Source: Squalus acanthias (Eukaryota). From it: DNA of 64,000 bases. The notes beneath the pieces were generated by a model. That model saw nothing but the letters and a program-made list of their open reading frames with translations, had not been told where the DNA came from and searched no databases. The stretch spans positions 126,978,001-127,042,000 of the forward strand of contig CM059431.1 of the NCBI GenBank assembly GCA_030390025.1, given 5' to 3'. Positions within the stretch are counted from its first letter, which is position 1. Every line of letters begins with the position of its first letter. This document shows, piece by piece, positions 1 through 54,893 of the stretch. The translations under genes were made by a program, and so were the position numbers.

Positions 1-539
1 GATCTCCTGACCAACACGTGGGTGCTGCGGTGAAAAACATCCGATCAGCTATTCGGGATTTCTCCGAGTTATTACGAGTGGTGAGCATGAGTCTCGGGAT
101 CCTACGAAGCTAGTTTTAGGATAGTTATTGATAGGGGAGGGTTTAAAGTTTAAGGATATTTGTAATGTGTGCCCTATTTACGTTGTGCTGGTCGTTCCTC
201 GTTTCCCTAAGAGTGATTATAACTGTTTGTAAGATTGTACTGTCATTAATCTGTGCATATGACATGTATTTCATAATTTTAAGTATCATGCAATAAAGAT
301 TTTCCATTTCGTACCGTTCAAACCAAGTCTACATGAGTTTTATCTCCATTACTGCTCTCGCATCTAAGTCCAGTGTCTAGAACCGTAAGGGAGAGTGATT
401 CGAACCACTCACAGGGGTGTCTAGTGTTCCCAGACTGGCTGGAGACCAGGCCTAGACCCGCACTGACATACAGGCTGCACAGAGCCGCGTGAATCTCACA
501 GGCTACGAGACACGCAGGGTCAGGAGAGTATCCCTTACA
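1..539 (+). repeat. 5' LTR (3' part only)
   Basis: Identical by eye to 7671-8209; ends ...CCCTTACA; AATAAA at 292-297. Confidence 0.95.
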
Positions 540-543
540 GAAA

Positions 544-2355
544 ATGGCGACCGCGGCAGGACACTGGCAGCGAGAGGGTAGTGTGTTAGATTTTGGAATG
601 ACTGTACGAAATGTGATGCAGGAAAAGATAGCGGATTACGTATTTGGAAAGGTTAATCTAACGAAAAAGTGGATAAGCGAATTGTTAGCGGATAAGAGCC
701 CACTAGAGGCAGCTGAAAGGTGGACGGATAGTAAGGAGCATAAAAAAGCAGTTGAGAAAGCAGTCTGGCTTATGTGCTACAAAAGGCAGGTTCAGATTTC
801 AAACCAGACCAATACAGCGCTAACCGCTCGAATCAAGCAGTTAGAGGAGGAAATGGAGGAGAAGGTTTCTGGAGGGGAGGCGCTCATTAAGAGTTTAAAT
901 GAGTTACGCCAGGAAAGCCAGGAAGTCTCCAGTTACCTTAAAACAAGGGTAGAGTATCTCGAGTGCCAGATCACTGAAGCAAAATTAAACGAGAGTAGGA
1001 TGAAGGAAAGATGTAACCGTCAAGCTGCCCAGATAAGAACTCAAGAAGAGAGCTTAATGGGGGTTAGGTCGGCGTATAAGTTGGCCCTTGAGGATAAGTT
1101 TCAGGGAGCCGACCATAGCGCCTGCGAAAAAGAGATAGAGAGCCTCAAAAAGGCCGTGAATAATGCGAACGGCATGGTGTGCCTTATTAATCCGTCGGCA
1201 CGCCAGCCGCTAGTAAATGAGAGATTTAGAAATTCCCCACCAAGTAAAGCAGAAGAAGTAGTAGCCAGTGCGCCCTCCGCGCCACCCAGCTATTCAGAAA
1301 CCTGGGTTAGGGAGGAAGCAACGGAAGAAGCAAAAGAGCCCGTTGAAAAGGAGGTAGAAAAGGGATCGTTGTATCCAGTAACGGGGATTAAAAGGGGCCC
1401 AAGCAGAAACGGTGGGGAAGAACCGGGGGATCTCCTCGGACAGCTGGTGTTGCCTCACAGTTCACATCAGCTGAGGGCCATGATAAACCACGTAAGGAAG
1501 CTGACCGAGATAGACGACCCTTCCGTACATTTTAGGGAAGTTGAGCAAGCCGCAGCCATCAACGGCTGCGATGATGGGGAGACAGCAAAAATGCTGCTGT
1601 TCTCTTTAGATAGCTCGGTCCTTCAGTGTCTCTCAGGCGATAGCAAGAGGGGTAATAAAAGTTATGAGGAATTGAAAAATGAGGTCCTAGAAGTAGTGGG
1701 AGCGAACGACGGAGGTCCGTTTGCTAGAGTGGGACAGACAGTGCAGATGGAGGGAGAACCCCCGAAGGTTTTTGCCGACAGGCTGTGGCCAGTATATGAG
1801 CGCAGCTGTCTAGGTGCGCCCGAGCGCGAAGATGTGGAAGGCGCCGCTTTAATTCATTGGCTTAGGTGCATAATAGCCAACAGTTTACCAGCCGTTAGAG
1901 AGCAGGCAAAAGCCTGGTTCGATCCCAATGACCTCAACCTTACGGAAGAGTCGGTCTTGAATCGACTCACGTTAGGTTACCGTAACATAAGGGGTATGGC
2001 AACACGTCCCTTTAAGGGAAGAGTACATGAGGTACGACCCGCAGCCCCGACTCAAAGAGAGTGGCATCAGGAGGGTAATCGCGCCCCACAGGCAAGTAAT
2101 GCCTGTTACGGGTGTGGGAAGACAGGGCACTGGCGCAAGCACTGCAGGAACCCTTGGAAGGATTCCAAGGATAAAAATCCCGCGGTCCGAACCCAGGCGC
2201 CTGTCCCGGCTAAGGAAGCAAAGGCACCCACCTCTCCCGAAGACCTCGAGGCAGTGTTAGGAGTCATGCGCAAGATGGTTTTGAATGCGCGTGGACAGGT
2301 GGCGGTCGCAACCGGCCCCGTAGGTGCCGCAGGACCGTCTAATAGTGCCCCATGA
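544..2355 (+). CDS. gag: Gag polyprotein, 603 aa (alternative start ATG at 598)
   Basis: Intact ORF with a long N-terminal coiled coil, PSAPPSY late motif (1273-1293), capsid-like region (DDPSVHFREVEQAA..., MHR-like QMEGEPPKVFADRL) and a single CCHC knuckle CYGCGKTGHWRKHC (2104-2145). Confidence 0.92.
   Translation: MATAAGHWQREGSVLDFGMTVRNVMQEKIADYVFGKVNLTKKWISELLADKSPLEAAERWTDSKEHKKAVEKAVWLMCYKRQVQISNQTNTALTARIKQLEEEMEEKVSGGEALIKSLNELRQESQEVSSYLKTRVEYLECQITEAKLNESRMKERCNRQAAQIRTQEESLMGVRSAYKLALEDKFQGADHSACEKEIESLKKAVNNANGMVCLINPSARQPLVNERFRNSPPSKAEEVVASAPSAPPSYSETWVREEATEEAKEPVEKEVEKGSLYPVTGIKRGPSRNGGEEPGDLLGQLVLPHSSHQLRAMINHVRKLTEIDDPSVHFREVEQAAAINGCDDGETAKMLLFSLDSSVLQCLSGDSKRGNKSYEELKNEVLEVVGANDGGPFARVGQTVQMEGEPPKVFADRLWPVYERSCLGAPEREDVEGAALIHWLRCIIANSLPAVREQAKAWFDPNDLNLTEESVLNRLTLGYRNIRGMATRPFKGRVHEVRPAAPTQREWHQEGNRAPQASNACYGCGKTGHWRKHCRNPWKDSKDKNPAVRTQAPVPAKEAKAPTSPEDLEAVLGVMRKMVLNARGQVAVATGPVGAAGPSNSAP
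545..562 (+). promoter_or_regulatory. Primer binding site for tRNA-Arg(UCG)
   Basis: TGGCGACCGCGGCAGGAC, 5 nt after the LTR end, is the reverse complement of GTCCTGCCGCGGTCG+CCA, the 3' end of vertebrate tRNA-Arg-TCG as recalled (not database-checked). Confidence 0.85.
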
Positions 2356-2359
2356 CTAG
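2353..2359 (+). promoter_or_regulatory. Putative stop-codon readthrough signal UGA-CUAG
   Basis: The gag stop reads TGA CTA G, and the downstream frame stays open in phase to 3516. Confidence 0.7.
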
Positions 2360-3516
2360 AGCCCACGCAGCCTGCCTACCTGTGTCCTTTTAAAAGACAC
2401 GCACAGGAGGGGGTCTGCGGTGAGGAGGCCAGGTTAAAAGAGCAGGCCTTGCGGGAGGAGAACACCCGCTTAATAGGGAGAATAGATGGGCTGGAAGGGC
2501 AGCTTAGAGAGCAGACCCTACGGGAGGAGAACGCCCGATCAATGGGAAAGTTAGACGTGCTCAGGCTAGAAGAGCAGCTTAGAGAGATAAAAGCAGCCTA
2601 CAGGGTAGCCAAAAGCAGGGAGTATGAGTATTTAAAACAGGATAGAAATCTGCAGCCTCCAGCAGGTGAGATTTCACAGAAACAAGCAGGGGCGGTGGCC
2701 TGTCTTAAGGGAGGGGCCAGACCTGCGAGTGGGGAAGCACAGCCCCAGGTAGGACCACAAGGCACACAGGCAGGCGTAGCAGCTTGCATCAGGGGAAGGG
2801 ACATCCCGGACGATCATGCAGCGTTTTTCTGGAGTTGGGGGTTAGATGACGAGGACCCCAGGGTACCCTGGTCAGATGAGGATAGTGCAGATGAGCATAG
2901 TGATGATGACGGGTGGTTTCAGAGGAACGGTCTGGAAGGATTGGGGCCGCTAGGTAGAGATCCATACGGGGTGGACACACAAGCTGCAGGTCCCGACAGC
3001 AGGAGGAAGGAGCTAGAGGAGGCCGGGCCAGCCGCTATGTGGTTCCCAGAGGTGTGGCCGCCCGCTTTGAACGTCCAGTCCTCAGGGGAGGCAGAGTTCA
3101 CGAGTGAAGGGCCGCCTGCTGGGCCGAGCAGGGCGGGGCCCCGAACTACCAGCCCCGAGGTTAGGGAGGCGGAGTCAGCGGAGGCGGGGCTGGCGCCTGT
3201 GATGGAACCCCAGGTCATCCCGTTGAAGGTCTCGGGACCCGGTCCGTCCGTCACGGAGCCCCCGCCCATAGCAATTCCCCGTAGGTCAAGCAGAGTACCC
3301 CAGCCCAGGAAGATGTGGTCAGGTCCACAGGCTGCCCCAGGGCGTAAGTTTCAGGTTAAGATAACCCGGGTAGAGACAGGCCACATCGAAGCAGTAACAG
3401 GCTGCGGCAGATCAGAGGCAAGGGTCAGCGCAGCAACAGGCTGCGGCAGATCAGAGGGAAGGGTCAGTGCCCTCCCACCGTCGGGAAGAGCTCGCAGCAG
3501 CCTTCTCAGGATTTAA
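2356..3516 (+). CDS. orfX: 386-codon non-enzymatic ORF in the pol position, in frame with gag (predicted 990-aa Gag-X readthrough product)
   Basis: No stop from 2356 to TAA 3514-3516, and no ATG before 2541 (the track's start at 2449 is TTG). Coiled-coil N-part, acidic/Trp patch, Pro-rich low-complexity C-part; no PR/RT/IN motifs. Confidence 0.7.
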   Translation, partial: LEPTQPAYLCPFKRHAQEGVCGEEARLKEQALREENTRLIGRIDGLEGQLREQTLREENARSMGKLDVLRLEEQLREIKAAYRVAKSREYEYLKQDRNLQPPAGEISQKQAGAVACLKGGARPASGEAQPQVGPQGTQAGVAACIRGRDIPDDHAAFFWSWGLDDEDPRVPWSDEDSADEHSDDDGWFQRNGLEGLGPLGRDPYGVDTQAAGPDSRRKELEEAGPAAMWFPEVWPPALNVQSSGEAEFTSEGPPAGPSRAGPRTTSPEVREAESAEAGLAPVMEPQVIPLKVSGPGPSVTEPPPIAIPRRSSRVPQPRKMWSGPQAAPGRKFQVKITRVETGHIEAVTGCGRSEARVSAATGCGRSEGRVSALPPSGRARSSLLRI

Positions 3517-3767
3517 AGGGGCCGCCCTGAGAACGGGCGGCATTGTAAAGTTATTAGTTTAAGGTTTTAAGTTTTAGTTTAAAGTTTTAAGTGGTTTTAA
3601 TAAGGTTAAGTTTGTAGTGTTTGTAACAGAAAACGATAAAATGATGGGAGTTTTAAGGCTAGGTTTAGAGGAAGTCTATTTAGCAAACGTTGAAGTTTAC
3701 GTGAGGCGAGGTCAGGGGACCCGCTCACCCTTCACAAAAGCCAGAGACTTTTTGCGAGGCTGGCTAC

Positions 3768-3787
3768 CTCATTCTATCTGATCACAG
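3768..3787 (+). promoter_or_regulatory. Candidate env splice acceptor
   Basis: Pyrimidine-rich CTCATTCTATCTGATCACAG ends 13 nt before the env ATG at 3801. Confidence 0.5.
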
Positions 3788-3800
3788 GAACCAAGGAAGG

Positions 3801-6152
3801 ATGGAACGACTCATAGTATTGCTCGCGGCAATCGGATGTGGATTGGCCTATCGGGGCCTCACCAAGGATGTCGTGGTGTTTGGATGTTCCGGGGACACGG
3901 CCCCCATCGCGGTGGATGGGACCGGGAGACGGAAGGCAGAAGGGACCAGCACCTATTTCCACAAGGGAAGGTGGCCAGGATGGCTGGGAACGAACTCAAC
4001 GGAGTATTCCAGCACATCGGGGTTCGCCTACAAAGAGACTTCTTTAATGTGCCCCAAAGTACGGATCATCGCACCCAGGATCAGCGTCACCGTCGGCAAA
4101 CGGATTTGTTTGACCTGCAGTGGGAATGTCCCATTGAGCCGATGGTGGTGGCTGCGAAAGCTGAGCAAAACTATGAGGAACTCTTCGGTTGAGTGGGAGC
4201 GACTGGGTAATAATACCCATCGGACAATTACGGGGACAAACGGACAAGTGAAAGTCTGTTGGGACAAATGGTGGGAACCGGATGAGGGGATTTATGTTTG
4301 TATGTGGGGGTCAAAGTACGTTTGCCCCAAAGGCATCTCCATATTCTTTATTAACCAGTGGCAGGATAACGGACAGGGGATGAGGTGGGATGCGAGCACC
4401 AGGGGGTGCGGAGCCCCATACTCTCCGATCCCAGTAAATGCCACTGAGCTCATTACGCGCCCACGCAAAGCCCCGCCCACGATTCCGGTGGTTGTAACTG
4501 AGGAAGAAGGGTGCCCTAAAACTAGTAAGGGACCCGGGAACGGTTTGGTACTGGTCCCCACAGACCAGATACTATTTCAGGGAGTGCATTACGCGGTGGC
4601 CTCGGTGATTTTAAATCTCACTGAGGTACGGTTACCAGAGTGGTGCCCCAAAAAGACGGAACAGTTGTACCAGGTCCTGTTGACCAAGATGTTCAGGCAA
4701 TTTTACGAGTTTGATTTTGCAGAAATTGATAAGACAAGTTTGTACACCGCACCGCAGGAAGTTTTGGACCAAGTAGGGAGGCAAAGAAGGGGTTTGGTGA
4801 ACGATGCGTTCACTGCTTTTAACACAGGGACATCTGTGGTCAACGCTCTAGACAGTGTGGAGCTGCAGACCCAGATTAATGGTTTAAAAACACAGTTAAA
4901 GGATATTCTCACAGATGAGAATAAAGTGGTAGGGTCGGGTCTGCACGAGGACCAAGCCATGACACTACACTTAAAGGAAATCATAGCAGAGCTGGAGAAA
5001 CATGCGCGTACGGTAAATGCCCTGATTAGGGAAGATCGGAATGCATCCGATCAGGCTGCGCAGAACGAGGTGTGCGTGCTTTACGGGGCGTGGTTACTGG
5101 GCGAGGGCCGCAGTAATTTGGAGGATTTAAAACAAGGTTTGGTCCCGTCCTGGATAAGTAACAAACACCTGCGGGCGCTCCACCCTTTTCAGAACGCATT
5201 AAGTCCGTGCCAGCTCAGGCTAGCTTCAGAAGCTTACCCAGTCCCCGTGGACTGCGGACGTTCAAACCATACTATTATGGGAATAGTATTACGCATGCCG
5301 GTTTTGGGCAACACAGCAAAGCCCGCCCCGGTGTATCGGGTAGAGAACATTGGTGTCATTCAGGGGGGAGCCCACATTCGTTATGCAGCGGTTCCACCTT
5401 ACGTCATCCGCTGGGAGCAAACGATGACAGGTACAGATCTCTCTGGTTGTCGTGGCAGGGGAGCACACATAATACTGTGCCCCCAGCACTTGAATGCCTT
5501 TTTAACACCACAGTGCGGGTTCAGAACGGCTGGCGCCAAGTCCATGAATTGCACCATGGAGGCAATGGCACAAGATCATGTGCCTCCGCAGGTAGCATAC
5601 ATCGGGGGTGGAACATACTGTGTTACCACTGCAGCGCAACACCACCAGCATGGAAACCGTAGCCGGTGTCCGGTGAGTGACAGCAGTTTCTGTTTTAAAC
5701 CCAGGGCTGAAGTTCAAGTAGCACAACAGCGAATTATCCCAATCCCTGAACCATCCACTGTTCATCTCACAGTAAAAGAGAATTTTACCGACTTGCAGCG
5801 ATTTGTCGCACATTTTGGGTACCTCATTCCCCCTCTCCCTGAGCATTTAACCAAACTTCTGAAAGCCGTCGCGGTGTCACAAAAGCATTTTTATACATTA
5901 GAACAGAAAACCGTCGAGATAGGTACAGACATTTTGGACATAGTGGTTCCACCGTGGTGGAATCTGTTCACGAATATTGAAGTGCCCTCATGGGTCAGAA
6001 TAGCCTCCCACATTTTAGTCGTCTGTCAAGTGTTTATTGTAGTATACCTATTGTTCATACATTGTAAAAGAGACAAACGCCTCACCAAGCATGAGAACAC
6101 GGGAGAGTGGCGAGAACGTTACGTGCGCGTGCACGATGAGAGCGCAGTGTAA
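3801..6152 (+). CDS. env: Env-like class I fusion glycoprotein, 783 aa, with N-terminal Ig-like domain (F-protein-like layout)
   Basis: Signal peptide MERLIVLLAAIGCGLA; Ig motif C106...W...DEGIYVC167; furin site RQRR (aa 327-330) then fusion-peptide-like GLVNDAFTAFNTGTSVVNAL and a heptad repeat; Cys-rich ectodomain with N-glycan sequons; TM IASHILVVCQVFIVVYLLFIHC; short tail. Confidence 0.88.
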   Translation: MERLIVLLAAIGCGLAYRGLTKDVVVFGCSGDTAPIAVDGTGRRKAEGTSTYFHKGRWPGWLGTNSTEYSSTSGFAYKETSLMCPKVRIIAPRISVTVGKRICLTCSGNVPLSRWWWLRKLSKTMRNSSVEWERLGNNTHRTITGTNGQVKVCWDKWWEPDEGIYVCMWGSKYVCPKGISIFFINQWQDNGQGMRWDASTRGCGAPYSPIPVNATELITRPRKAPPTIPVVVTEEEGCPKTSKGPGNGLVLVPTDQILFQGVHYAVASVILNLTEVRLPEWCPKKTEQLYQVLLTKMFRQFYEFDFAEIDKTSLYTAPQEVLDQVGRQRRGLVNDAFTAFNTGTSVVNALDSVELQTQINGLKTQLKDILTDENKVVGSGLHEDQAMTLHLKEIIAELEKHARTVNALIREDRNASDQAAQNEVCVLYGAWLLGEGRSNLEDLKQGLVPSWISNKHLRALHPFQNALSPCQLRLASEAYPVPVDCGRSNHTIMGIVLRMPVLGNTAKPAPVYRVENIGVIQGGAHIRYAAVPPYVIRWEQTMTGTDLSGCRGRGAHIILCPQHLNAFLTPQCGFRTAGAKSMNCTMEAMAQDHVPPQVAYIGGGTYCVTTAAQHHQHGNRSRCPVSDSSFCFKPRAEVQVAQQRIIPIPEPSTVHLTVKENFTDLQRFVAHFGYLIPPLPEHLTKLLKAVAVSQKHFYTLEQKTVEIGTDILDIVVPPWWNLFTNIEVPSWVRIASHILVVCQVFIVVYLLFIHCKRDKRLTKHENTGEWRERYVRVHDESAV

Positions 6153-6563
6153 TGGGAAAATGGCGTCACTCCCGCTCGCCACGTGCGCCGCGGAAGTTTG
6201 TACTCATTGTAAATACGTTGGAAACTCGATATGTTTAAGAGTCGGGATTTGTTTATTTTGGTGATGGTGTTGATTGTTTGGTTTTTGGGTTTTGTTTTTC
6301 CTTCCCTTGAATAAAAGACAAATATACAGGTGATGCGTGAGGTATCGGCCTGGTTACGCCGGGAAGGAAAACAAGTGGTGTAAGTTTAAGGGCAAATGAT
6401 GCCTACGGTGATATAAAATGTTATTTTCTTGGGAAATAAGGACGACACAGAGACCTAGTGAAGTTAAAATTTTATGGGATTAATTTACTGGATTCGGAGT
6501 GAAATCGAGATAAGATTGCTCACCACTGAGATTTTTGATACGATAAGCGGAGTTATTCGCATC

Positions 6564-6575
6564 AACAGGAGGGAC
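6564..6575 (+). promoter_or_regulatory. Polypurine tract
   Basis: AACAGGAGGGAC immediately precedes the TG start of the 3' LTR. Confidence 0.7.
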
Positions 6576-7141
6576 TGTAGAATTCGCAATTATCGCGATT
6601 TCATTTTTTAATAAGGAGAAAACACAAAGTTTCGTTCAAAACAGCTTTTATTTCAGCGAAATGCTGTCAGGTTTAAATTGGACACAAGCAGCCGGTAAAA
6701 TGGCCGCCGCACCGCGTGACAGAACATTCTAGACTTTTCAGCAGGCAGACAAGATGGCGTTCCAATAAACATTCTTGCAGGATCGATAACGATTCAGCAC
6801 AGTGAAGACAATACACAGGACATTATGGGTTTACAGTATAAACATCGATACTGGAATCGGTCTCCCAGGTACAAAGGAAAGCCATCAAGGGCCCATCCAA
6901 AGGACATTAATATGTAAACTCCCAACGGCTCTACAATGAGAGAGCCGTTAGCAGGTAGTTATACAGGACACTTGGAAGCCCCAAACCCCTCCAGGGGGAA
7001 CACCGACCGATTTAACAATGGGAGAAATATTAACAGGTACTCAAACATTCAGGAGTAGCCCCGAAACCCATTAAGGACAGAGATCACCCATACAGGACTT
7101 TTGGGCGCCAAACCTTAAACAAAAGAATGGACATTGTAGTT

Positions 7142-7173
7142 GGGCGGGAAACGGAAGAACTGTGCACTATAAT
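7142..7173 (+). promoter_or_regulatory. Candidate LTR core promoter (GC box + TATA-like)
   Basis: GGGCGG at 7142-7147 and TATAAT at 7168-7173; CTATAA is kept at the same position in both solo LTRs. Confidence 0.5.
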
Positions 7174-7365
7174 TGCAGGCCCAAACCGTCCATTCGCTCT
7201 CTGGCCTCTTGCTCTTTTGCTCTTGACTCTTGTCGCTTGCTGCTGTTATCATCGTGGCTGCTCCTGTGTTTTATCCGGTCGATTCGTAACCTCGTGGCTG
7301 CTCCTGGGTAAAAGACTGTTGCAAAGACCTATGTTGGTAGCTGGCAGCGGAACCGAAGGCCCGGG

Positions 7366-7395
7366 ATGAGATGAGATGAGATGAGATGAGATGAG
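7366..7395 (+). repeat. (ATGAG)6 microsatellite inside the LTR
   Basis: Seen directly; shorter related runs occur at the same place in both solo LTRs. Confidence 0.9.
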
Positions 7396-7961
7396 AGGAG
7401 AAGAGAAGAAGACCTTATCCATCGCCACGGTCAGTAAATCCCGACCGCGCCTGTAGGTCGATCAGCCAAGTCTTCTCGACAGGAAGTTTTCTTCTTTAAC
7501 AAGACATATTGCATCAATGATAACTGGACTGTGCAAACACATCGTATCAGTGATATTGGCAACGGTGCTCCACGATTTAACTTTGAAGCCCACCAACAGA
7601 GGTCTTCACTACAGCGGACGGTCCAGCCGACTGACCGAGCAGCAGAAGCAGTAAACAAGTGGGACCAGGAGATCTCCTGACCAACACGTGGGTGCTGCGG
7701 TGAAAAACATCCGATCAGCTATTCGGGATTTCTCCGAGTTATTACGAGTGGTGAGCATGAGTCTCGGGATCCTACGAAGCTAGTTTTAGGATAGTTATTG
7801 ATAGGGGAGGGTTTAAAGTTTAAGGATATTTGTAATGTGTGCCCTATTTACGTTGTGCTGGTCGTTCCTCGTTTCCCTAAGAGTGATTATAACTGTTTGT
7901 AAGATTGTACTGTCATTAATCTGTGCATATGACATGTATTTCATAATTTTAAGTATCATGC

Positions 7962-7967
7962 AATAAA
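7962..7967 (+). terminator. LTR polyadenylation signal
   Basis: AATAAA, conserved (as TTTATT on +) in both minus-strand solo LTRs. Confidence 0.7.
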
Positions 7968-8209
7968 GATTTTCCATTTCGTACCGTTCAAACCAAGTCT
8001 ACATGAGTTTTATCTCCATTACTGCTCTCGCATCTAAGTCCAGTGTCTAGAACCGTAAGGGAGAGTGATTCGAACCACTCACAGGGGTGTCTAGTGTTCC
8101 CAGACTGGCTGGAGACCAGGCCTAGACCCGCACTGACATACAGGCTGCACAGAGCCGCGTGAATCTCACAGGCTACGAGACACGCAGGGTCAGGAGAGTA
8201 TCCCTTACA

Positions 8210-10380
8210 GGGCTACTTCCCCTCCTTTTTCATTCTGCCTGTCTTTTCGGAACGTCAAGTACCCTGGAACATTTAGGGGGGAAAATTGAGTCGCGCCCCC
8301 TTTAGGGCATTAATTTCACTGGGGTGCTACTTCTAGTGCCCCGAAAAAAATTAACGCCCCCGCGGCCGAAATTCATCGGTAGCGCCCCAAGAGGGAAGCG
8401 GAGAGCTACTGGAAGCACCCCGCCTCCCTCTTGGGGCGTGCGCTGCGGCACGTCGCGCTGCGCTACTGCAGGCCTTCCTCCCCTTCTTAAAGGGGAGGGG
8501 ACTTGCGCAGCATGAGCCGGGGCCCAGCTGGGCCACCAGGGATCTGAGTGCCGGCAAAAGAGCCCGGCACTCAAGAGAAGTGCCAGGCTCAGGGAGTGCA
8601 GTCAGCACTCTGCGGGGGGGCTGCTCAGGAGGCCGTGGATGGCAACGGGGGCAGGTGCTGGCAGGCGGCCAGCAACAAAAATGGCCGCCCGGCACCTCGC
8701 CTTTAATTAACGCTGTCCCGGCCGCAGGTAGGCCCCCCTGACCCCGTCGGACATAGTGTCCGGCATTAAGTCAGGGGGCACTACCGAAGATCACTGCCAG
8801 GGTGCAAGTGGGGTGCTGCGCATGGCGATGAAGTCATCGCCGGCGACACAGCGCTGTAGGGCGCTAACGGTTACCGTCTTCGCTAACCTCCCGCTGAATT
8901 TTGCAGGAGGCTTTGGCGGTGCCGCGCCCGGGCGCTAGTTGCTTTGCGCCCCGTTAGTGCCCTAGGGCACTAACGGGAGGTGCAAAACAACCAAATTTTT
9001 CCTCCTTAGTTCCCAACCTTGGCCACTTTGCAACCATGTCTCTGTAATGGCTATTAGATCAAACCCATTTATCTCTATTTGTGCCACTATTTCATCTATC
9101 TTGTTACGAATGCTTCGTGTATTCAGATAAAGAGCCTTTAATTTAAATATTTTACCATTATCCCCTGCTTTGACCTTATTCTCTGCTGCACTGCTACCGT
9201 TAAACTCTCTGTCCCTTCCTGTCACACTCTGCTTATTTTTACCCAAATCGCTACACTGCTCTATTGCCTTGACCTTTTGTCTTTAGATTTCTAAATTTCC
9301 CCCCACCTGACCCCTCCACCCGCCTTTTTTAGTTTAAAGCCCTACCTACAGCCCTAGTTATTCGATTCAACAGGACGCTGGTCCCAGCCCGGTTTAAGTG
9401 GAGACCGTCCCGATGGAACAGCTCCCTCTTTTCCCGGTACTGGTGCCAGTGCCCCATGAATTGAAACCCCATTTTCTCACACCACTCTTTGGGCCCTGCA
9501 TTTAACTCTCTGATCTGCTTGACCCTATGCCAATTTACGTGTGGCTCAGGCAGTAATCCAGAGATTATTATCCTTGTTGTTCTGCTTATTAATTTAGACC
9601 CTAGCTCCTCAAACTCCCTCAGCAGAACCTCATTCTTAGTTCTACCTATGTCGTTGGTTCCTACACGGATCACGACAACTGGATCCTCCCCCTCCCACTC
9701 CAAGTTCTTCTCCAGCTGCGAGGAAATATCCTTAACCCTGGCACCGGGCAGGCAACACAGCCTTCGGGACTCTCTTTCGTGGCTGCAGAGAACAGTATCT
9801 ATCCCCCTGACTATACTGCCCCCTACTGCTACCACATTCCTTCCTTCTCCCCGCACTTGGATGGCCCCCTGTACCACAGTGCCATGGTCAGTTTGCCCAT
9901 CCTCCCTACAGTCCTTTTCCTCATCCATACAGGTAGAAAGTACCTCGTACCTGTTGGACAAGGTCCAGGGCTGAGGCTCATCCATCACTACATCCTGGGT
10001 CCCCATACCTGCCTGACTCGCAGTCGCACCCTCCTGTCCCTGATCACTGACGAACTCTAAAGTACTACTTAACCTAAAGGGTGTGACTGCCTCCTGGAAC
10101 AAAGTGTCCAGGTAACTCTCCCCCTCCCTGATGCATTGCAATGTCTACAGCTCGTACTCCAGCTCAACAATTCTGAGCCGAAGTTCCTCGAGTTGCAGAC
10201 ACTTACTGCAGATGTGGTTGCTCGGGATCGCGATGCGTTCCACAGACTCCCACATGCTGCAGTTATGACACAGCCCTGCCCTGCCATCTCAAACCTTGTT
10301 TTATTTATTAATATATTATTTAAAGATTTTATTCAATCGATATTTTAGGTTTATCGTTTGATTATTTTATTTAGTTTAAG
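8210..10380 (-). mobile_element. CR1 LINE 5' part (ORF1 zinc-finger/SGNH esterase, start of APE endonuclease), interrupted by the provirus and a MITE
   Basis: ORF 9329-10141 has esterase motifs (GGSIVRGID, CLPGARVKD, VGTNDIG, DGLHLN). APE motif YLNTRSIRNK...IAITETWL is in 9009-9246 and continues at 8210-8275. Confidence 0.88.
8276..9005. mobile_element. PIF/Harbinger-type MITE, family A copy 1
   Basis: GG(G/A)GGAAAA(A)TT termini, TTA TSD (8273-8275 / 9006-9008), GC/CpG-rich; inverted copy at 20972-21710. Confidence 0.8.
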
Positions 10381-46391: not shown

Positions 46392-48043
46392 TGTAAGGGG
46401 TTTTGTCTTGCTTGTATCACAGACGGTGCTGGTGCGAGGTCAGGCCTTCGTTGCCTAATACTATTGCTTGCTCTGGTCTCCGGCCAGCCTTGTTGCAATA
46501 AGCACCTGTGAGTGGTTCGACCCACTCGCCCTTACGGTTCTAACACTGGACTTAGGTGCGAGAGCAGTAATGCAGAGAAAAACTCAAATAAACCTGGTTG
46601 AATAGTACGAAATGGAAATCTTTATTGCATAGCGTCCAAAATCATGAAGTACATGTCATAGGCGCAAATTAACGAGAGTACAAGTATACATACATTCATA
46701 AAGCTTGGTCTATGGAAATGAAGAACGCACGGCACATCGTAAAAAGGGGTACACATTATACTTTATCCTTAATAAAACCACCCTCCCTTATCAATACCTA
46801 CACTACATCTAGATTTGTAGGATCGGGAAACATGCTCACCACTCGTGATACTTCGGAGAATTTTAAAGTGAGGCACTCGGCTCGTTCGCTGCAGCGCCTG
46901 ACTGTCACGTGTTTGGAGGGGTCTCTGTACCCCACTTGTTTATCTTCGCTGCTGCGACAAGCAGGCCGGGCTCCCCGTTGTCATGAAGAACTCGACAGAC
47001 CTCGGGCCCGGTTGTAGAACTCAAAGAAAAGTCTTCCTGTACTGACACCAGTTGTCGGTAGAATTCAATGAAGAGTCGATGGACCCAAACCGATTCGTGC
47101 AGTAACCCGTAGAATTCAAGAAATGAGTTCTATGTTTTCGGGCACGGTCGGGGTTTACTGACCGCGGCGGCACGTGAATTCTTCTTCTTTTCTTCTCGTC
47201 TCGTCTTGTCTTGTTGGGCCTTCGGGTCCAGACACCGTTTACCGACTCTCGGGATGGTGCACCCGGTCACTTGCCCTTGTCGATGCGGCTCGTTCCGTTT
47301 GAGCTCCACCCAACATTCGAATAACCGTCCAGTGCGGCTACAAGTCAAGAGTCAACAGTGTCCAGCCCTAAGGAAGAGTTTCAGCAAGGGTTCGCCGAGA
47401 GAAAAATAAGAGAGCGATGGACATTTGTTCTCTATAGTTATAGTGCTGTGTCCCCTTATCTCCCGCTCAAATCTTAATGTTTGTCCTTTGTGAAATATTG
47501 GCACACAAAACTCCCAGCATGGGGGCGATTCTTTCCTTAACGGGTTTCGGTAGCACCTGAAACTGGCCAACTACCCGTTAATGTTTTCCCCATAGCCGAA
47601 CCAGCTAGGAGTCTCCCTGACTGGTTTTGGGGCCTCCTCGAATACTGACTTAATCACCCGTGAATGGCTCTCTCATTGTAGAGCCGTGGGGGTATATGTG
47701 TATTGCTGTGTCTGGATGGGCCTTCGATTGCCCAGTACAATGGTCCTTACTTGTGCATGGAAAACGATTCCAGCATCTTTTGCTATTGTTTCGAATGCAA
47801 ACAGGTTGCATCCTGTCTTTATCAATGTTTACCGAGTATGATCCAATTTTATATCGAATGTTTATTCGACGCCATCTTGTCTGCCCACTGTATTTCTGGA
47901 AGCTTCTGCCACGATGCGCGGCGGCCCATTTTACAGGCTTCTGTGTCCTTTATAATCATGACAGCATTTCGTTTAAATAAACTGATCAAACGAATCTGCT
48001 TCTCTCTTGTTATTTTGAATCGCGATAATTGCGAAACTTTACA
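46392..48043 (-). mobile_element. Solo LTR (1652 bp), diverged member of the provirus LTR family
   Basis: TGTA...TACA termini, perfect CGTT TSD (46388-46391 / 48044-48047), collinear blocks with 6576-8209; sits inside a Harbinger remnant (~46325-48570). Confidence 0.92.
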
Positions 48044-52289: not shown

Positions 52290-54893
52290 TCAGTATGTGT
52301 CCAGCCCTAGGAGGAAAGAAGTATTTCTACATCTAGTTCTGGGGAATGACATGGGGCAAGTGGAGCATGTTTCAGTGAGGGAGTATGTGGGAAACAGTGA
52401 TCACAATATCATTAAGTTTAGAGTAGTTATGAAAAAGGACAAGGAAAAATCAAATGTGCAAATACTCAACTGAAGAAGGGCTAATTTCAGTGAGTTGAAA
52501 AGGGATCGGGCCCAGATGGATTGGAATAAAATATTGGGAGGTAAAACAGTAAATGAGCAATGGGAGGCCTTCAAAGAGAAGATAGTTTGGGTACAGAATT
52601 GTAAGGGGTTTGGGTGGCTCTGTGCTTAGCCTGGGTGCTAGTGCGGGGTTAAGCCTTGTTGCCTGTTCTGGTCTCCAGCCAGCCTGGTAGCACTAGACAC
52701 CTGTGAGTGGTTCGACCCACTCGCCCTTACGGTTCTGACACTGGACTTAGGTGCGAGAGCAGTAATGCAGAGAAAACTCAGGTAGACCCAGTTGAATAGT
52801 ACGAAATGGAAAATCTTTATTGCATATTGTTCAAGATTACGAAATACATGTCATAAGCACAGATTAATGACAGTACAAGCTTACATACATTTATGCAACT
52901 AGGTTTAGGGAAACGAGGAGCGCACGACACATCGTAAAAGGGGGCACACATTATAATTATCCTTAAAACAAAACCCTCCCCTATTAATACCTGTCCTAAT
53001 CTAGATCTGTAGGATCGAGAACCATGCTCACCACTTGTGATAACTCGGAGAATTCTAAAACGATGCTCGGATGTTTTCGCCACAGCACCTGACTATTCAC
53101 GTGTTGATCAGGGGTCTCTGTACCCCACTTGTTTACTCGCTCTGCTGCTGCAAGCAGGCTGGGCTCCCCGTTGTCATGAAGAACTCGACAGTGCTCGGGC
53201 CCGGCTGTAGAACTCAAAGAAAAGTCTTTCTGGATCGACACCAGTTCGATAAAATTCGAAGAAAAGTCTTCCTGCGTCAGTTCGTGCAGTAACCTGTAGA
53301 GTTCAAAAATGGTCTATATATTTTCGGGCGCGGTCGGGGTTTACTGACCGTGGCGGCACGTGGATTCTTCTTCTTCTCTTCTCATCTCATCTCATCTCCT
53401 CGGGCCTTCGGGTCCAGACACCGTTTATCGACCTTCGGGATGGTGCACCCGATTTCGCAGCGTGCCATGAGGTCGACCCCAAAAGGGATCAGCGGAACAA
53501 ACGAGAGTAACGGTCGTCCGGGAGAATAGCCAAGAGACGATTCCAAGCGAATGAAAAGGATAAGAGAGCGATGGGCGCTTGGACACTACAGTTATAGTAC
53601 TGTAATTCATTATCTCCCGCCCAATCTTAATGTTCATCTTTTGTCATGTTTTGGCGCTCAAATTTCTTGTATGGTGTGGTTCTTGTCGTTAATGGGTTTC
53701 GGTGATACTTGTAACTGTCTAAGTACCCGTTAATATTTCTCCCATTGTGGAACCGGCTAGGAGTCTCCCTGGAGGGGTTTTTGGGGCCTGCGAATTCTTG
53801 TTGTGAGTACCCGCGAACGGCTCTCTCATCGTAGAGCCGCGGGGGATTTGCGTATCAATGTCTTTGGATGGGCCCTTGATTGCCCAGTACAATAGCCCCC
53901 GTTTGTGCATGGAAAAACTCGATTCCAGCACTTATATTTCTTGCTTAGGTGTTAGAAATGCAAAACAATCGCGTCTTGTCTTATATCAATATGCTGAGCA
54001 CTGTCCGATCTTGCTGAAATGTTTATTGAAATGCCATCTTGTCTGCCTACTGAAAAATCTGGAACCTTCTGCCACGAGGCGCGGCGGCCATTTTACAGGC
54101 TTCTTGTGTCCGTTTTTGAACGTGACAGCATTTTGCTGAAATAAAGCTGTTTTTACGAAACTGTATGTCTCTATCTCGTTATTTCGAAATCGCAATAATT
54201 TGCGAATTCTACAGACTAGACACATTCCCATGAGAGGGAAAGGAAGGGCATCCAAAGCTAAAGCCCCCAGGGTGACTACAGATATCGAGATTAAAATGAA
54301 ACAGAAAAAGGAGGCTTTTGATTAATGTCTGGTTCATAATTCAGTAGAGAAACAAGCTGAATATTGAAGAAGGAAATAAGAGGAGCAAAAAGAGTGTATG
54401 AGAATAGAATAGCGGATAACATAAAAGGGAACCCAAAAGTATTTTATAAATAAATAAATAGTAAAAGGGTAGTAAAAGGAAGGGTGGAATTGATTAGGGA
54501 CCAAAGAGGAAATCATCTTGTAGAGGTTGAGGGCATGAGTGAGGTGCTAAATGAGTACTTTGCATCTGTCTTCACTAAAGAAGAGGATGTTGTCAATGTC
54601 ACAGTATAGGAGGAGGTTGTAGAGTAATTGGTTCAGATAAAAATAGATAAAGAGGAGGTATTTAAAGGTTGGCAGAGCTCAAAAAAAAAAGTCACCAAGT
54701 ACGGTGTGATCCTAGGTTGCTGAGGGAAGTAAGTGTGAAAATTGCAGAGGTTCTGGCCACAATCTTCCAATCCTCTTTAGATATGGGAGTAGTGCCAGAG
54801 GACTGGAGGATTTCAAATGTTACACCCCTGTTTAAAAAAGGGAAGAGGGTTAAAACCGCCAGTCAGCCTAACATCGGTGGTGGGGAAACTTTT
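52290..54893 (+). mobile_element. Degenerate CR1 ORF2 fragment split by the solo LTR; continues after the Harbinger at ~58405-58705
   Basis: SDHN, EYFASVF and VPEDWR..NVTPLFKKG remnants; the sequence rejoins across both insertions. Confidence 0.75.
52600..54213 (-). mobile_element. Solo LTR (1614 bp), diverged member of the provirus LTR family
   Basis: Ends TGCGAATTCTACA (reverse complement of the proviral LTR start) and TGTAAGGG; TSD GAAT/GACT with one mismatch. Confidence 0.92.

Follow-up and report, generated by a model that had tools for sequence, protein, structure and literature searches.

The 64-kb window analysed here (the whole stretch 126978001–127042000 of contig CM059431.1, within the 3.7-Gb assembly of Squalus acanthias) begins inside an endogenous retrovirus (ERV) that contains gag and env but carries a short in-frame insert where the enzyme genes would stand. 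In our assessment this element is very probably a long-lived, non-autonomous, helper-dependent ("satellite") provirus of a very young, high-copy family whose envelope protein (Env) is predicted to resemble the fusion protein F of paramyxoviruses. Positions refer to the window unless stated otherwise, and all stranded features of the element lie on the plus strand.

Structure of the Provirus

Comparison of the window with itself reveals a direct repeat in which 1–539 is 100% identical to 7671–8209, and the original prediction, made from the letters of the window, had read this repeat as a long terminal repeat (LTR) of 539 nt. Once 10 kb of upstream genome is added, the repeat grows to ~1,640 nt. 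The full LTR measures 1,634 nt (TGTAG...TTACA) and its 5' copy starts 1,094 nt upstream of the window; the shorter length is thus an artefact of the window edge, which cuts the 5' LTR. Accordingly, 1–539 is the 3' part (R-U5 side) of the 5' LTR, with an AATAAA at 292–297, and the complete 3' LTR occupies 6576–8209, with (GATGA)n near 7365–7395 and AATAAA at 7962–7967. With the 3' LTR in this position, the ~1.5 kb after env is mostly U3, and its assignment to the internal sequence was rejected; the internal region is 540–6575. The two LTRs are identical, as had been claimed, over the 539 nt inside the window, but the full pair differs at 2 of 1,633 compared positions. The provirus has a length of 9.3 kb and is flanked on both sides by the 4-bp target-site duplication (TSD) GGGC, whose 3' copy lies at 8210–8213 and whose 5' copy, predicted from the window and found outside it, directly precedes the 5' LTR. 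An 80-aa open reading frame (ORF) and the (GATGA)n microsatellite lie inside the U3 of the 3' LTR (7127–7395).

The primer-binding site (PBS) and the polypurine tract are intact, as predicted. The PBS-like sequence TGGCGACCGCGGCAGGAC at 545–562 is complementary to the 3' end of tRNA-Arg(TCG), and the purine tract AGGAGGGAC at 6567–6575 abuts the 3' LTR and recurs in two divergent copies of the element. The gag start codon (544) is embedded in the PBS (541–562) in the context AAAATGG, which is strong and Kozak-like. With a leader between PBS and gag being absent, any packaging signal must overlap U5 or the gag coding sequence.

The gag frame runs uninterrupted from its ATG over 603 aa (544–2355). 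Its N-terminal part includes a coiled-coil region, and a CCHC zinc knuckle at aa 521–534 (nt 2104–2145) gives weak matches to zf-CCHC and nucleocapsid profiles; a search against the PDB likewise returned weak zinc-knuckle matches only. A single-sequence AlphaFold2 model of aa 253–603 was uninformative, with a mean predicted local distance difference test (pLDDT) score of 38. The frame ends in TGA followed by CTAG (2353–2359), and gag and the downstream frame share one reading frame. UGA-CUAG is a strong readthrough context. A hairpin (CCUGUGU...GCACAGG, 2376–2410) is predicted ~25 nt past the gag stop, across the left junction, and it may or may not substitute for the readthrough-stimulating structure of the pol-bearing form described below.

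The env frame is equally uninterrupted (783 aa, 3801–6152), both frames thereby matching the prediction. It begins with a signal-like N-terminus and contains ten N-glycosylation sequons. Behind a furin-type RQRR site at aa 327–330 (nt 4779–4790) come a stretch resembling a fusion peptide and a long helix, and further along a beta-rich core, a second helix and a transmembrane segment at aa ~731–757. An AlphaFold2 model built on 28 sequences reached pLDDT values of 80–93 over most of aa 235–650 (mean over the model 58). In Foldseek the top matches of this model were F proteins of paramyxoviruses and pneumoviruses, led by that of human parainfluenza virus 3 (1ztm, E 6e-12, probability 1.0) and followed by those of respiratory syncytial virus, Newcastle disease virus and henipavirus, with 244 matches at E ≤ 0.001 in total. 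Env is thus predicted from its modelled fold to be paramyxovirus-F-like. Pfam profiles including PF00523 gave no match to the env sequence, a weak Baculo_F match (E 0.0011) being confined to one chimeric homologue, and neither phmmer nor a profile search found anything significant among PDB sequences. Among 1.84 billion representative sequences 49 homologues of env were found at E ≤ 1e-3. Ten of them were looked up by name; they come from one skate species (at most 75% identical), three shark species (28–74%), two frog species (~20%) and two unnamed contigs.

Pol-Bearing Relatives and the X Frame

The LTR was recovered at ~100% identity in 40 scored places out of 1,227 candidates, and the LTR pairs are spaced either by ~7.6–7.7 kb or by ~10.9–11.0 kb, apart from two wider pairs (14.3 and 15.4 kb). 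Four longer elements align with the window copy at 98–99% over 404–2387 and from 2730 onward, and carry ~3.7 kb in place of 2388–2729. This segment contains RVP, RVT_1, RT_RNaseH_2/RT_RNaseH, RNase_H, Integrase_H2C2, rve and SH3-like domains. In three of the four, a gag frame of 620 codons, one stop, an in-frame pro-pol of 1,500 codons and an env frame of 815 codons are present, and the fourth shows a frame change within the reverse transcriptase (RT). The pol-bearing elements with the same LTR and PBS that the original prediction had envisaged thus exist, and gag and env are shared with them at the same 98–99%. Judged from their sequence, their gag and pro-pol in a single frame with one stop in between follow a readthrough-type layout in the style of gamma- and epsilonretroviruses. 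Their Pol gives nearly equal scores with Ty3 (245 bits), the RT-RNase H of murine leukaemia virus (MLV)/XMRV (237 bits) and foamy virus protease (PR)-RT (218 bits), and its integrase (IN) is closest to that of prototype foamy virus (118 bits). Among named Pol sequences the nearest, with 44–45% identity, come from two frogs and the coelacanth, where they are called "NYNRIN-like".

Downstream of the gag stop the window copy has an open frame of 386 codons (2356–3516), termed the X frame. It consists of 11 codons of the PR N-terminus, a filler of 114 codons (342 nt, 2388–2729) and, in Pol's own frame, the last 261 codons of Pol (2730–3516), which lie past the integrase domains and are 98–99% identical to those of the pol-bearing copies. 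The filler stands in place of 3,684 nt of pro-pol, from PR through the SH3-like domain of IN, and the replacement of 3,684 nt by 342 nt keeps the frame. The orfX that had been predicted as a gene of its own (2542–3516) is merely the part of this frame that starts at ATG 2542. We rejected it as a new accessory gene; it is made of filler and Pol tail, and its frame is open back to the gag stop. The claim that the internal region has neither room for nor motifs of PR, RT, RNase H and IN stood up to both searches made. Pfam found none of these domains in gag, orfX or env, and in tblastn the 1,500-aa Pol of a relative aligned only with its aa 1–16 (weakly) and aa 1234–1500 (96.6%).

The filler has no stop codon in the X frame, compared with 8 and 9 in the other two frames, and its peptide has the pattern of a heptad-like coiled coil. 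Internally it repeats a unit of ~70 nt (2426–2511 and 2496–2586). Blastn and tblastx against the pol-bearing element and the window gave no similarity except at its edges, which are 87% identical. No homologue was found in proteins of 212–676 aa, the best score in a protein atlas (0.89) was below the useful range, and BLASTP against gag gave no match (E 0.18). The insert may or may not stem from a captured host gene, as in transducing defective retroviruses. The predicted RNA fold is not clearly unusual (z = -1.99), 3 of 100 shuffled sequences folding as well.

Abundance, Insertions and Age

Genome-wide abundance was estimated with 24-mer markers allowing up to two mismatches. The left junction of the pol-less form gave 1,112 matches, the gag-PR junction of the pol-bearing form 2,187 and a marker at the env furin site 2,243, each with a control of 0. 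For the PBS complement (15-mer, up to one mismatch) 4,385 matches were obtained with a control of 79. Of the family, which numbers at least 3,300 copies, the pol-less form hence represents about one third, and the gag-X-env structure, predicted to recur in independent copies, is found many times over instead of in a single copy with a simple post-insertion deletion.

For detailed comparison two samples of pol-less copies were used, the first comprising the window copy and six copies from the best LTR matches, the second every 8th of 51 exact junction matches on one contig (C1). The pol-bearing set used for the tree contained four copies from the LTR matches and every 12th of 83 exact matches on C1. 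In total, of thousands of copies 14 pol-less and 11 pol-bearing ones were compared. The env marker is conserved in all 11 copies of both forms that were sampled first, and the PBS is identical in 10 of 11.

All nine pol-less copies checked have perfect 4-bp duplications and unrelated flanks (GGGC, CAGC, CTCC, ACAG, GTGT, AGAA, TGGG, CAGC and GGGG), in accordance with the predicted independent insertions with their own TSDs. Segmental duplication as the source of the copies was rejected, as flanks and duplications differ. Among the four pol-bearing copies three show a 4-bp duplication, the LTR start of the fourth lying outside the stretch compared. LTR pairs contain 0–1 mismatch per ~840 nt in six pol-less and four pol-bearing copies; further pol-less pairs show 1 mismatch in 1,725 nt, and 5 mismatches with 2 gap openings in 1,666 nt. 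Overall, the identity of pol-less LTR pairs amounts to 99.3–100%.

In places pol-less units follow each other at distances of ~7.64–7.72 kb, corresponding to one internal region plus one LTR, and share their LTRs (C1:143657926/143665649/143673367, C6:35140780/35148439 and C2901:144878/152513). The number of independent insertions is therefore lower than 1,112. Contig C1 has 96 env markers, of which 41 had no exact junction to pair with, so further structural classes exist.

Coding State and Selection

In the first sample gag and X are open in 7 of 7 copies and env in 6 of 7, the remaining copy having one frame change. The second sample likewise has gag (611–625 codons) and X (368–405 codons) open in all seven copies, and env frames of at least 797 codons in five. 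Both samples together thus show open gag and X in 14 of 14 copies and open env in 11 of 14.

Selection was gauged by the ratio of the proportions of nonsynonymous and synonymous differences (pN/pS). Within the window's subfamily, represented by seven pol-less and four pol-bearing copies, it was 0.15 for gag (singletons 0.11), 0.07 for env (singletons 0.08) and 0.98 for the Pol tail (singletons 0.69). The pol-less copies alone gave very similar values of 0.16, 0.07 and 1.07 for gag, env and tail, and the filler part gave 0.86. Between subfamilies pN/pS was 0.26–0.46 for gag, with pS up to 0.33, and 0.02–0.38 for env apart from one pair at 0.67; X ranged from 0.51 to 0.91 there and from 0.5 to 1.1 overall. 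A dN/dS comparison had been proposed for gag, orfX and env, and its outcome is divided: gag and env are under purifying selection, but the X frame is nearly neutral. Synonymous diversity among the copies amounts to 2–5%, far above the divergence of the LTR pairs, and most differences therefore arose during replication under selection, before insertion. Strong constraint on env is usually taken to imply spread by infection and not purely intracellular retrotransposition.

Exchange between the Two Forms

Differences fixed between pol-less and pol-bearing copies occur only beside the junctions. Of the informative sites, 27 lie in gag and 42 in tail plus env, and both forms are polymorphic at 16 and 34 of these, respectively; the four-gamete test fails for 199 of 351 site pairs in gag and for 447 of 861 in tail plus env. 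The maximum-likelihood tree of gag (14 pol-less and 11 pol-bearing copies) is ladder-like with both forms interleaved, well-supported branches forcing at least three label changes. Of its 25 gag segments 24 are open, and TGA-CTAG follows gag in 24 of 25 copies, in both forms. Interleaving and shared polymorphisms point to recombination between the forms, for which co-packaged RNAs would be the simplest explanation.

In the 30-odd nt that lead from the gag stop to the filler, the sequence is that of older pol-bearing subfamilies, not that of the young one, and among young pol-less copies the point where helper-type sequence ends varies. It follows that the cassette predates the gag and env with which it is now joined; these genes were refreshed by recombination. 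The cassette is not uniform either. In older subfamilies the filler has a different, shorter 3' end and joins Pol directly where the SH3-like domain of the integrase ends, a further stretch is replaced in the subfamily of the window, and one copy (L053, C1:204983386-204989586) contains an extra 23-aa coiled-coil repeat unit, giving an X frame of 405 codons. The cassette itself has therefore changed over time. A filler core of 78 codons is conserved across subfamilies with a pS of 0.02–0.10, compared with 0.16–0.33 for gag; this reflects either a constraint at the nucleotide level or a relatively recent cassette that was spread across helper lineages by recombination.

In gag, copies of the second sample match the window copy at 85–99% identity. 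The LTRs of two divergent copies share only 85% identity with those of the window, but the two LTRs within each of these copies agree at 99.94% and 99.34%, respectively, and both copies have TSDs of their own. Several pol-less lineages were thus recently active.

Near-identical sequence also occurs in public sequencing runs under six coded organism labels. None of the runs listed is recorded as RNA, and the contigs of four runs, some perhaps from RNA, gave no env splice joint. Contigs bridging the left pol-less junction were obtained from organisms A and D and those bridging the right one from organisms B and C, with pol-bearing continuations at both junction places in organism D. Both forms hence occur beyond the assembled individual, where the labels A–D may not be distinct species.

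Genomic Surroundings

A pattern combining the PBS complement with a T-loop motif matched the genome 426 times, and both places fetched were tRNA-Arg(tcg) genes according to ARAGORN; near the first matches to the PBS pattern no tRNA genes were found, these matches being proviruses. There are at least 426 copies of the tRNA-Arg(TCG) matching the PBS, most of those listed in long tandem arrays with a period of ~1,623 nt (contig C26, ~38.99–42.2 Mb, loci L046 and L047). The unit at L047 additionally contains a tRNA-Ser(GCT).

Two older pieces on the minus strand of the window (46473–48035 and 52668–54214) are 72–81% identical to the LTR and are probably solo or fragmentary LTRs of older relatives in the same superfamily. 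Directly downstream of the element a 225-aa ORF is located on the minus strand (9329–10006), which may correspond to an ORF1 of esterase type as found in CR1/LINE-like retrotransposons. On the upstream side of the insertion, a pair of inverted repeats of ~690 nt with 87% identity (-2279..-1592 and -7221..-6534, locus L027) is unrelated to the element.

Interpretation

The proposal that the element borrows Pol in trans from an autonomous relative is in good agreement with these data, as 2,187 pol-bearing junctions are available and the element has no enzymes of its own; mobilisation in trans would be its probable mode of spread. Regarded as a two-component system instead of a one-off deletion, as had also been suggested, the pair is substantiated by the abundance of both forms and by their independent insertions, but that the element builds its own enveloped particle can only be surmised.

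In the proposed cycle the provirus would be transcribed from its own LTR, and its RNA would be packaged together with pol-bearing RNA from the same cell into particles consisting of the Gag of both forms and the Gag-Pro-Pol of the helper. Since the satellite's Gag still needs the helper protease, by which the particle would be matured, mixed particles are likelier than separate ones. Helper RT would copy the satellite RNA from the shared tRNA-Arg primer, often switching templates between both RNAs, and helper integrase would insert the resulting DNA, leaving the 4-bp duplication. Env of either form could mediate spread from cell to cell. If the leaky gag stop is read through, a Gag-X fusion would arise at the place of the helper's Gag-Pro-Pol. 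The satellite itself would contribute cis elements and probably Gag, possibly Gag-X, and Env. The recombination signals between both forms would be an indirect sign of co-packaging.

From the computed anatomy, absence of pol, abundance, independent insertions, recency, selection on gag and env, mosaicism and persistence across subfamilies we infer trans-complementation, co-packaging, synthesis of Gag-X and a use of the Gag and Env that the satellite itself encodes. A number of points weigh against this reading. As the best LTR matches supplied the first seven pol-less copies, that sample is skewed towards the youngest subfamily, that of the window. Purifying selection in the pol-less copies may reflect only selection on the genes of the helper; as the forms exchange sequence, selection on gag and env of the satellite is inseparable from that on the helper. 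A function of Gag-X is doubtful because the X frame is almost neutral, with a pN/pS of 0.86 in the filler part and about 1 in the tail. The mosaic pattern could receive a contribution from gene conversion between genomic copies, and none of the 11 sampled pol-bearing copies is of the 93–94% gag grade. In addition, the env marker (2,243) is rarer than both junctions summed (3,299), and many family members therefore are without that env site or have diverged there.

Beyond helper dependence as such, we tentatively consider a more far-reaching reading, which is possible but would not be our expectation. It sees an evolutionarily stable satellite, as opposed to a passing defective by-product, in which a single old cassette, made of the left flank of older helpers, the coiled-coil filler and the Pol tail, has remained linked to complete gag and env, has repeatedly been re-equipped by recombination with several co-circulating helper lineages, with LTRs differing by 15%, and occurs in several host organisms. 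The Gag-coiled-coil-X readthrough protein would then be adaptive; it could, for instance, mimic Gag-Pol and so gain the satellite a place in helper particles, or shift the balance of Gag to Gag-Pol in the satellite's favour, and the two-genome system would be maintained by selection.

It is rather unlikely, in our judgement, that the element is instead a parasite of a parasite of the defective-interfering type, mobilised in trans but with gag, X and env frames that are useless to it. The frames would then be intact through youth and imported helper sequence, and what is conserved would be cis-acting RNA within gag and env for packaging, dimerisation, export and splicing. Such a view is in accordance with the nearly neutral X frame, the extensive exchange with helpers, the conservation of the filler core at synonymous sites as well, and near-identical LTR pairs that left little time for decay. 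Mammalian defective partners are also known to keep gag and env flanks without functional genes, as far as described in the accessible part of a bovine study (PMC10924933). However, dispensable genes predict shorter satellites with deletions in gag or env, whereas the full layout persists up to the highest gag pS, and on contig C1 the exact env marker accompanies 30 of 51 pol-less but 25 of 83 pol-bearing junctions (both lower bounds). The one open frame of the filler, next to two frames full of stops, and its RNA fold, which is not clearly unusual, also count against a purely cis-acting role.

Still more improbable is an interfering element of benefit to the host, in which Gag-X, or the satellite's Gag plus Env, acts as a dominant-negative or receptor-blocking factor and the form is kept partly for restraining the helper. 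Gag-X would indeed take the position of Gag-Pro-Pol in assembling particles, self-multimerisation through its coiled coil is conceivable, most copies have an intact env, and the bovine study proposes, in the text accessible, that an ERV clade owes its demise in part to its defective partners (PMC10924933). Yet ~1,100 dispersed recent copies indicate selfish amplification and not a selected host locus, no one conserved locus emerged, the X frame evolves almost without constraint, and the pol-bearing copies are still twice as many and equally young.

A one-off deletion after insertion, multiplied by segmental duplication, or an assembly artefact can practically be dismissed: the tandem units sharing LTRs do mean that the 1,112 junctions are not all independent, but nine of nine copies differ in flanks and duplications, the filler is absent from pol-bearing copies and thus no simple deletion can have produced the form, the same junction occurs in subfamilies with LTRs 15% apart, and junctions appear in independent runs under four organism labels.

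Relation to Known Systems

A helper-dependent satellite provirus of this kind can be compared with the competent/defective (C/D) ERVK[2-1-LTR] pair of cattle. In the available part of that study the defective D elements are described as being without intact ORFs, and their mobilisation was observed in cattle pedigrees (PMC10924933). Both systems share a young clade with a shorter, enzyme-less form that has LTRs and gag/env flanks in common with the autonomous form, a central segment swapped for foreign sequence, pervasive recombination and presumed trans-complementation (PMC10924933). Unlike the D elements as described there, the present form has complete gag and env under purifying selection and an in-frame coding filler. 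It also differs from the bovine clade, so far as the accessible text characterises it, in its F-type Env, in not being a betaretrovirus, in copy numbers in the thousands and in that its mobilisation is deduced.

ETn/MusD, the I-delta-1 form of intracisternal A particles (IAP) with IAP, and recKoRV with koala retrovirus A (KoRV-A) are named in the same source, in the part available, as further pairs of non-autonomous and autonomous elements (PMC10924933). In the manner of ETn and MusD, our element is without RT and IN, has LTR, PBS, polypurine tract and terminal regions in common with an autonomous relative of the same genome and is present in many integrations. In all three pairs the dependent partner shares LTR, PBS and coding flanks with its helper, is amplified in trans and often outnumbers or out-inserts it. 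ETn is non-coding, I-delta-1 is a gag-pol fusion deletion in an env-less intracellular family, and in recKoRV most of the genome is replaced by another retroelement. To our knowledge, none of the three has been described with both gag and env intact across divergent subfamilies.

The spleen focus-forming virus of Friend (SFFV) and its helper, Friend MLV (F-MuLV), offer a further comparison: a defective genome with the LTRs and packaging region of the helper is rescued by the competent virus, and altered coding sequence replaces the lost genes. Defective viruses of this type, which are laboratory or pathogenic isolates, do not last long, and their oncogenic inserts come from env or from the host. 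In contrast, the defective form described here is endogenous, has ~1,100 copies, has persisted through much divergence and has an insert for which no homologue was found. A comparable pol-less satellite retaining gag and env was not found in the main texts of the open-access literature.

With regard to its affinity, the family shows similarities to the lokiretroviruses. According to the accessible portion of their description, these are arranged as LTR-gag-pol-env-LTR and have a second RNase H next to a degenerate one (the "tether") and an Env related to F of paramyxoviruses and pneumoviruses with furin-type site, fusion peptide, coiled coil and transmembrane segment; some contain coiled-coil ("SMC-like") sequence, and their hosts include amphibians and lobe-finned fish (PMC7947760). 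The pol-bearing relative correspondingly has RT_RNaseH_2/RT_RNaseH plus RNase_H, and Pol and Env relatives occur in amphibians, those of Pol also in the coelacanth. The likeness in Env is one of predicted fold, PF00523 not being detected by sequence. By its dual RNase H and the predicted F-type fold the family is a candidate member of the lokiretroviruses; on the side of RT, the nearly equal scores with Ty3 and MLV and the nearest named Pol sequences in frogs and the coelacanth are indirect signs. Cartilaginous fish hosts and pol-less derivatives are not mentioned in the accessible portion of that description (PMC7947760).

New compared with these systems is a dependent partner that keeps complete gag and env under purifying selection together with an in-frame filler in the Gag-Pol slot. 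New as well are its persistence across divergent, concurrently active subfamilies, its place in a family with an Env of predicted F type, and the very high copy numbers. Helper-dependent ERVs are known from a few mammalian families, and the other mammalian partners are gene-poor like the bovine one; here two of the three retroviral genes are kept. The family is noteworthy in itself as large and very young, with an Env of predicted F type that is strongly constrained by purifying selection and has relatives in sharks and skates. Amplification of ERVs is usually associated with loss of env, and the combination of high copy number with a conserved env runs counter to this. The pair of forms offers a natural system for asking why certain defective retroviruses hold on to genes, in what way recombination lets satellites keep pace with their helpers, and whether parasites of parasites limit or prolong an ERV invasion. 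Should the reading as a stable satellite be true, the two forms would constitute a two-genome retroviral system that is maintained by selection.

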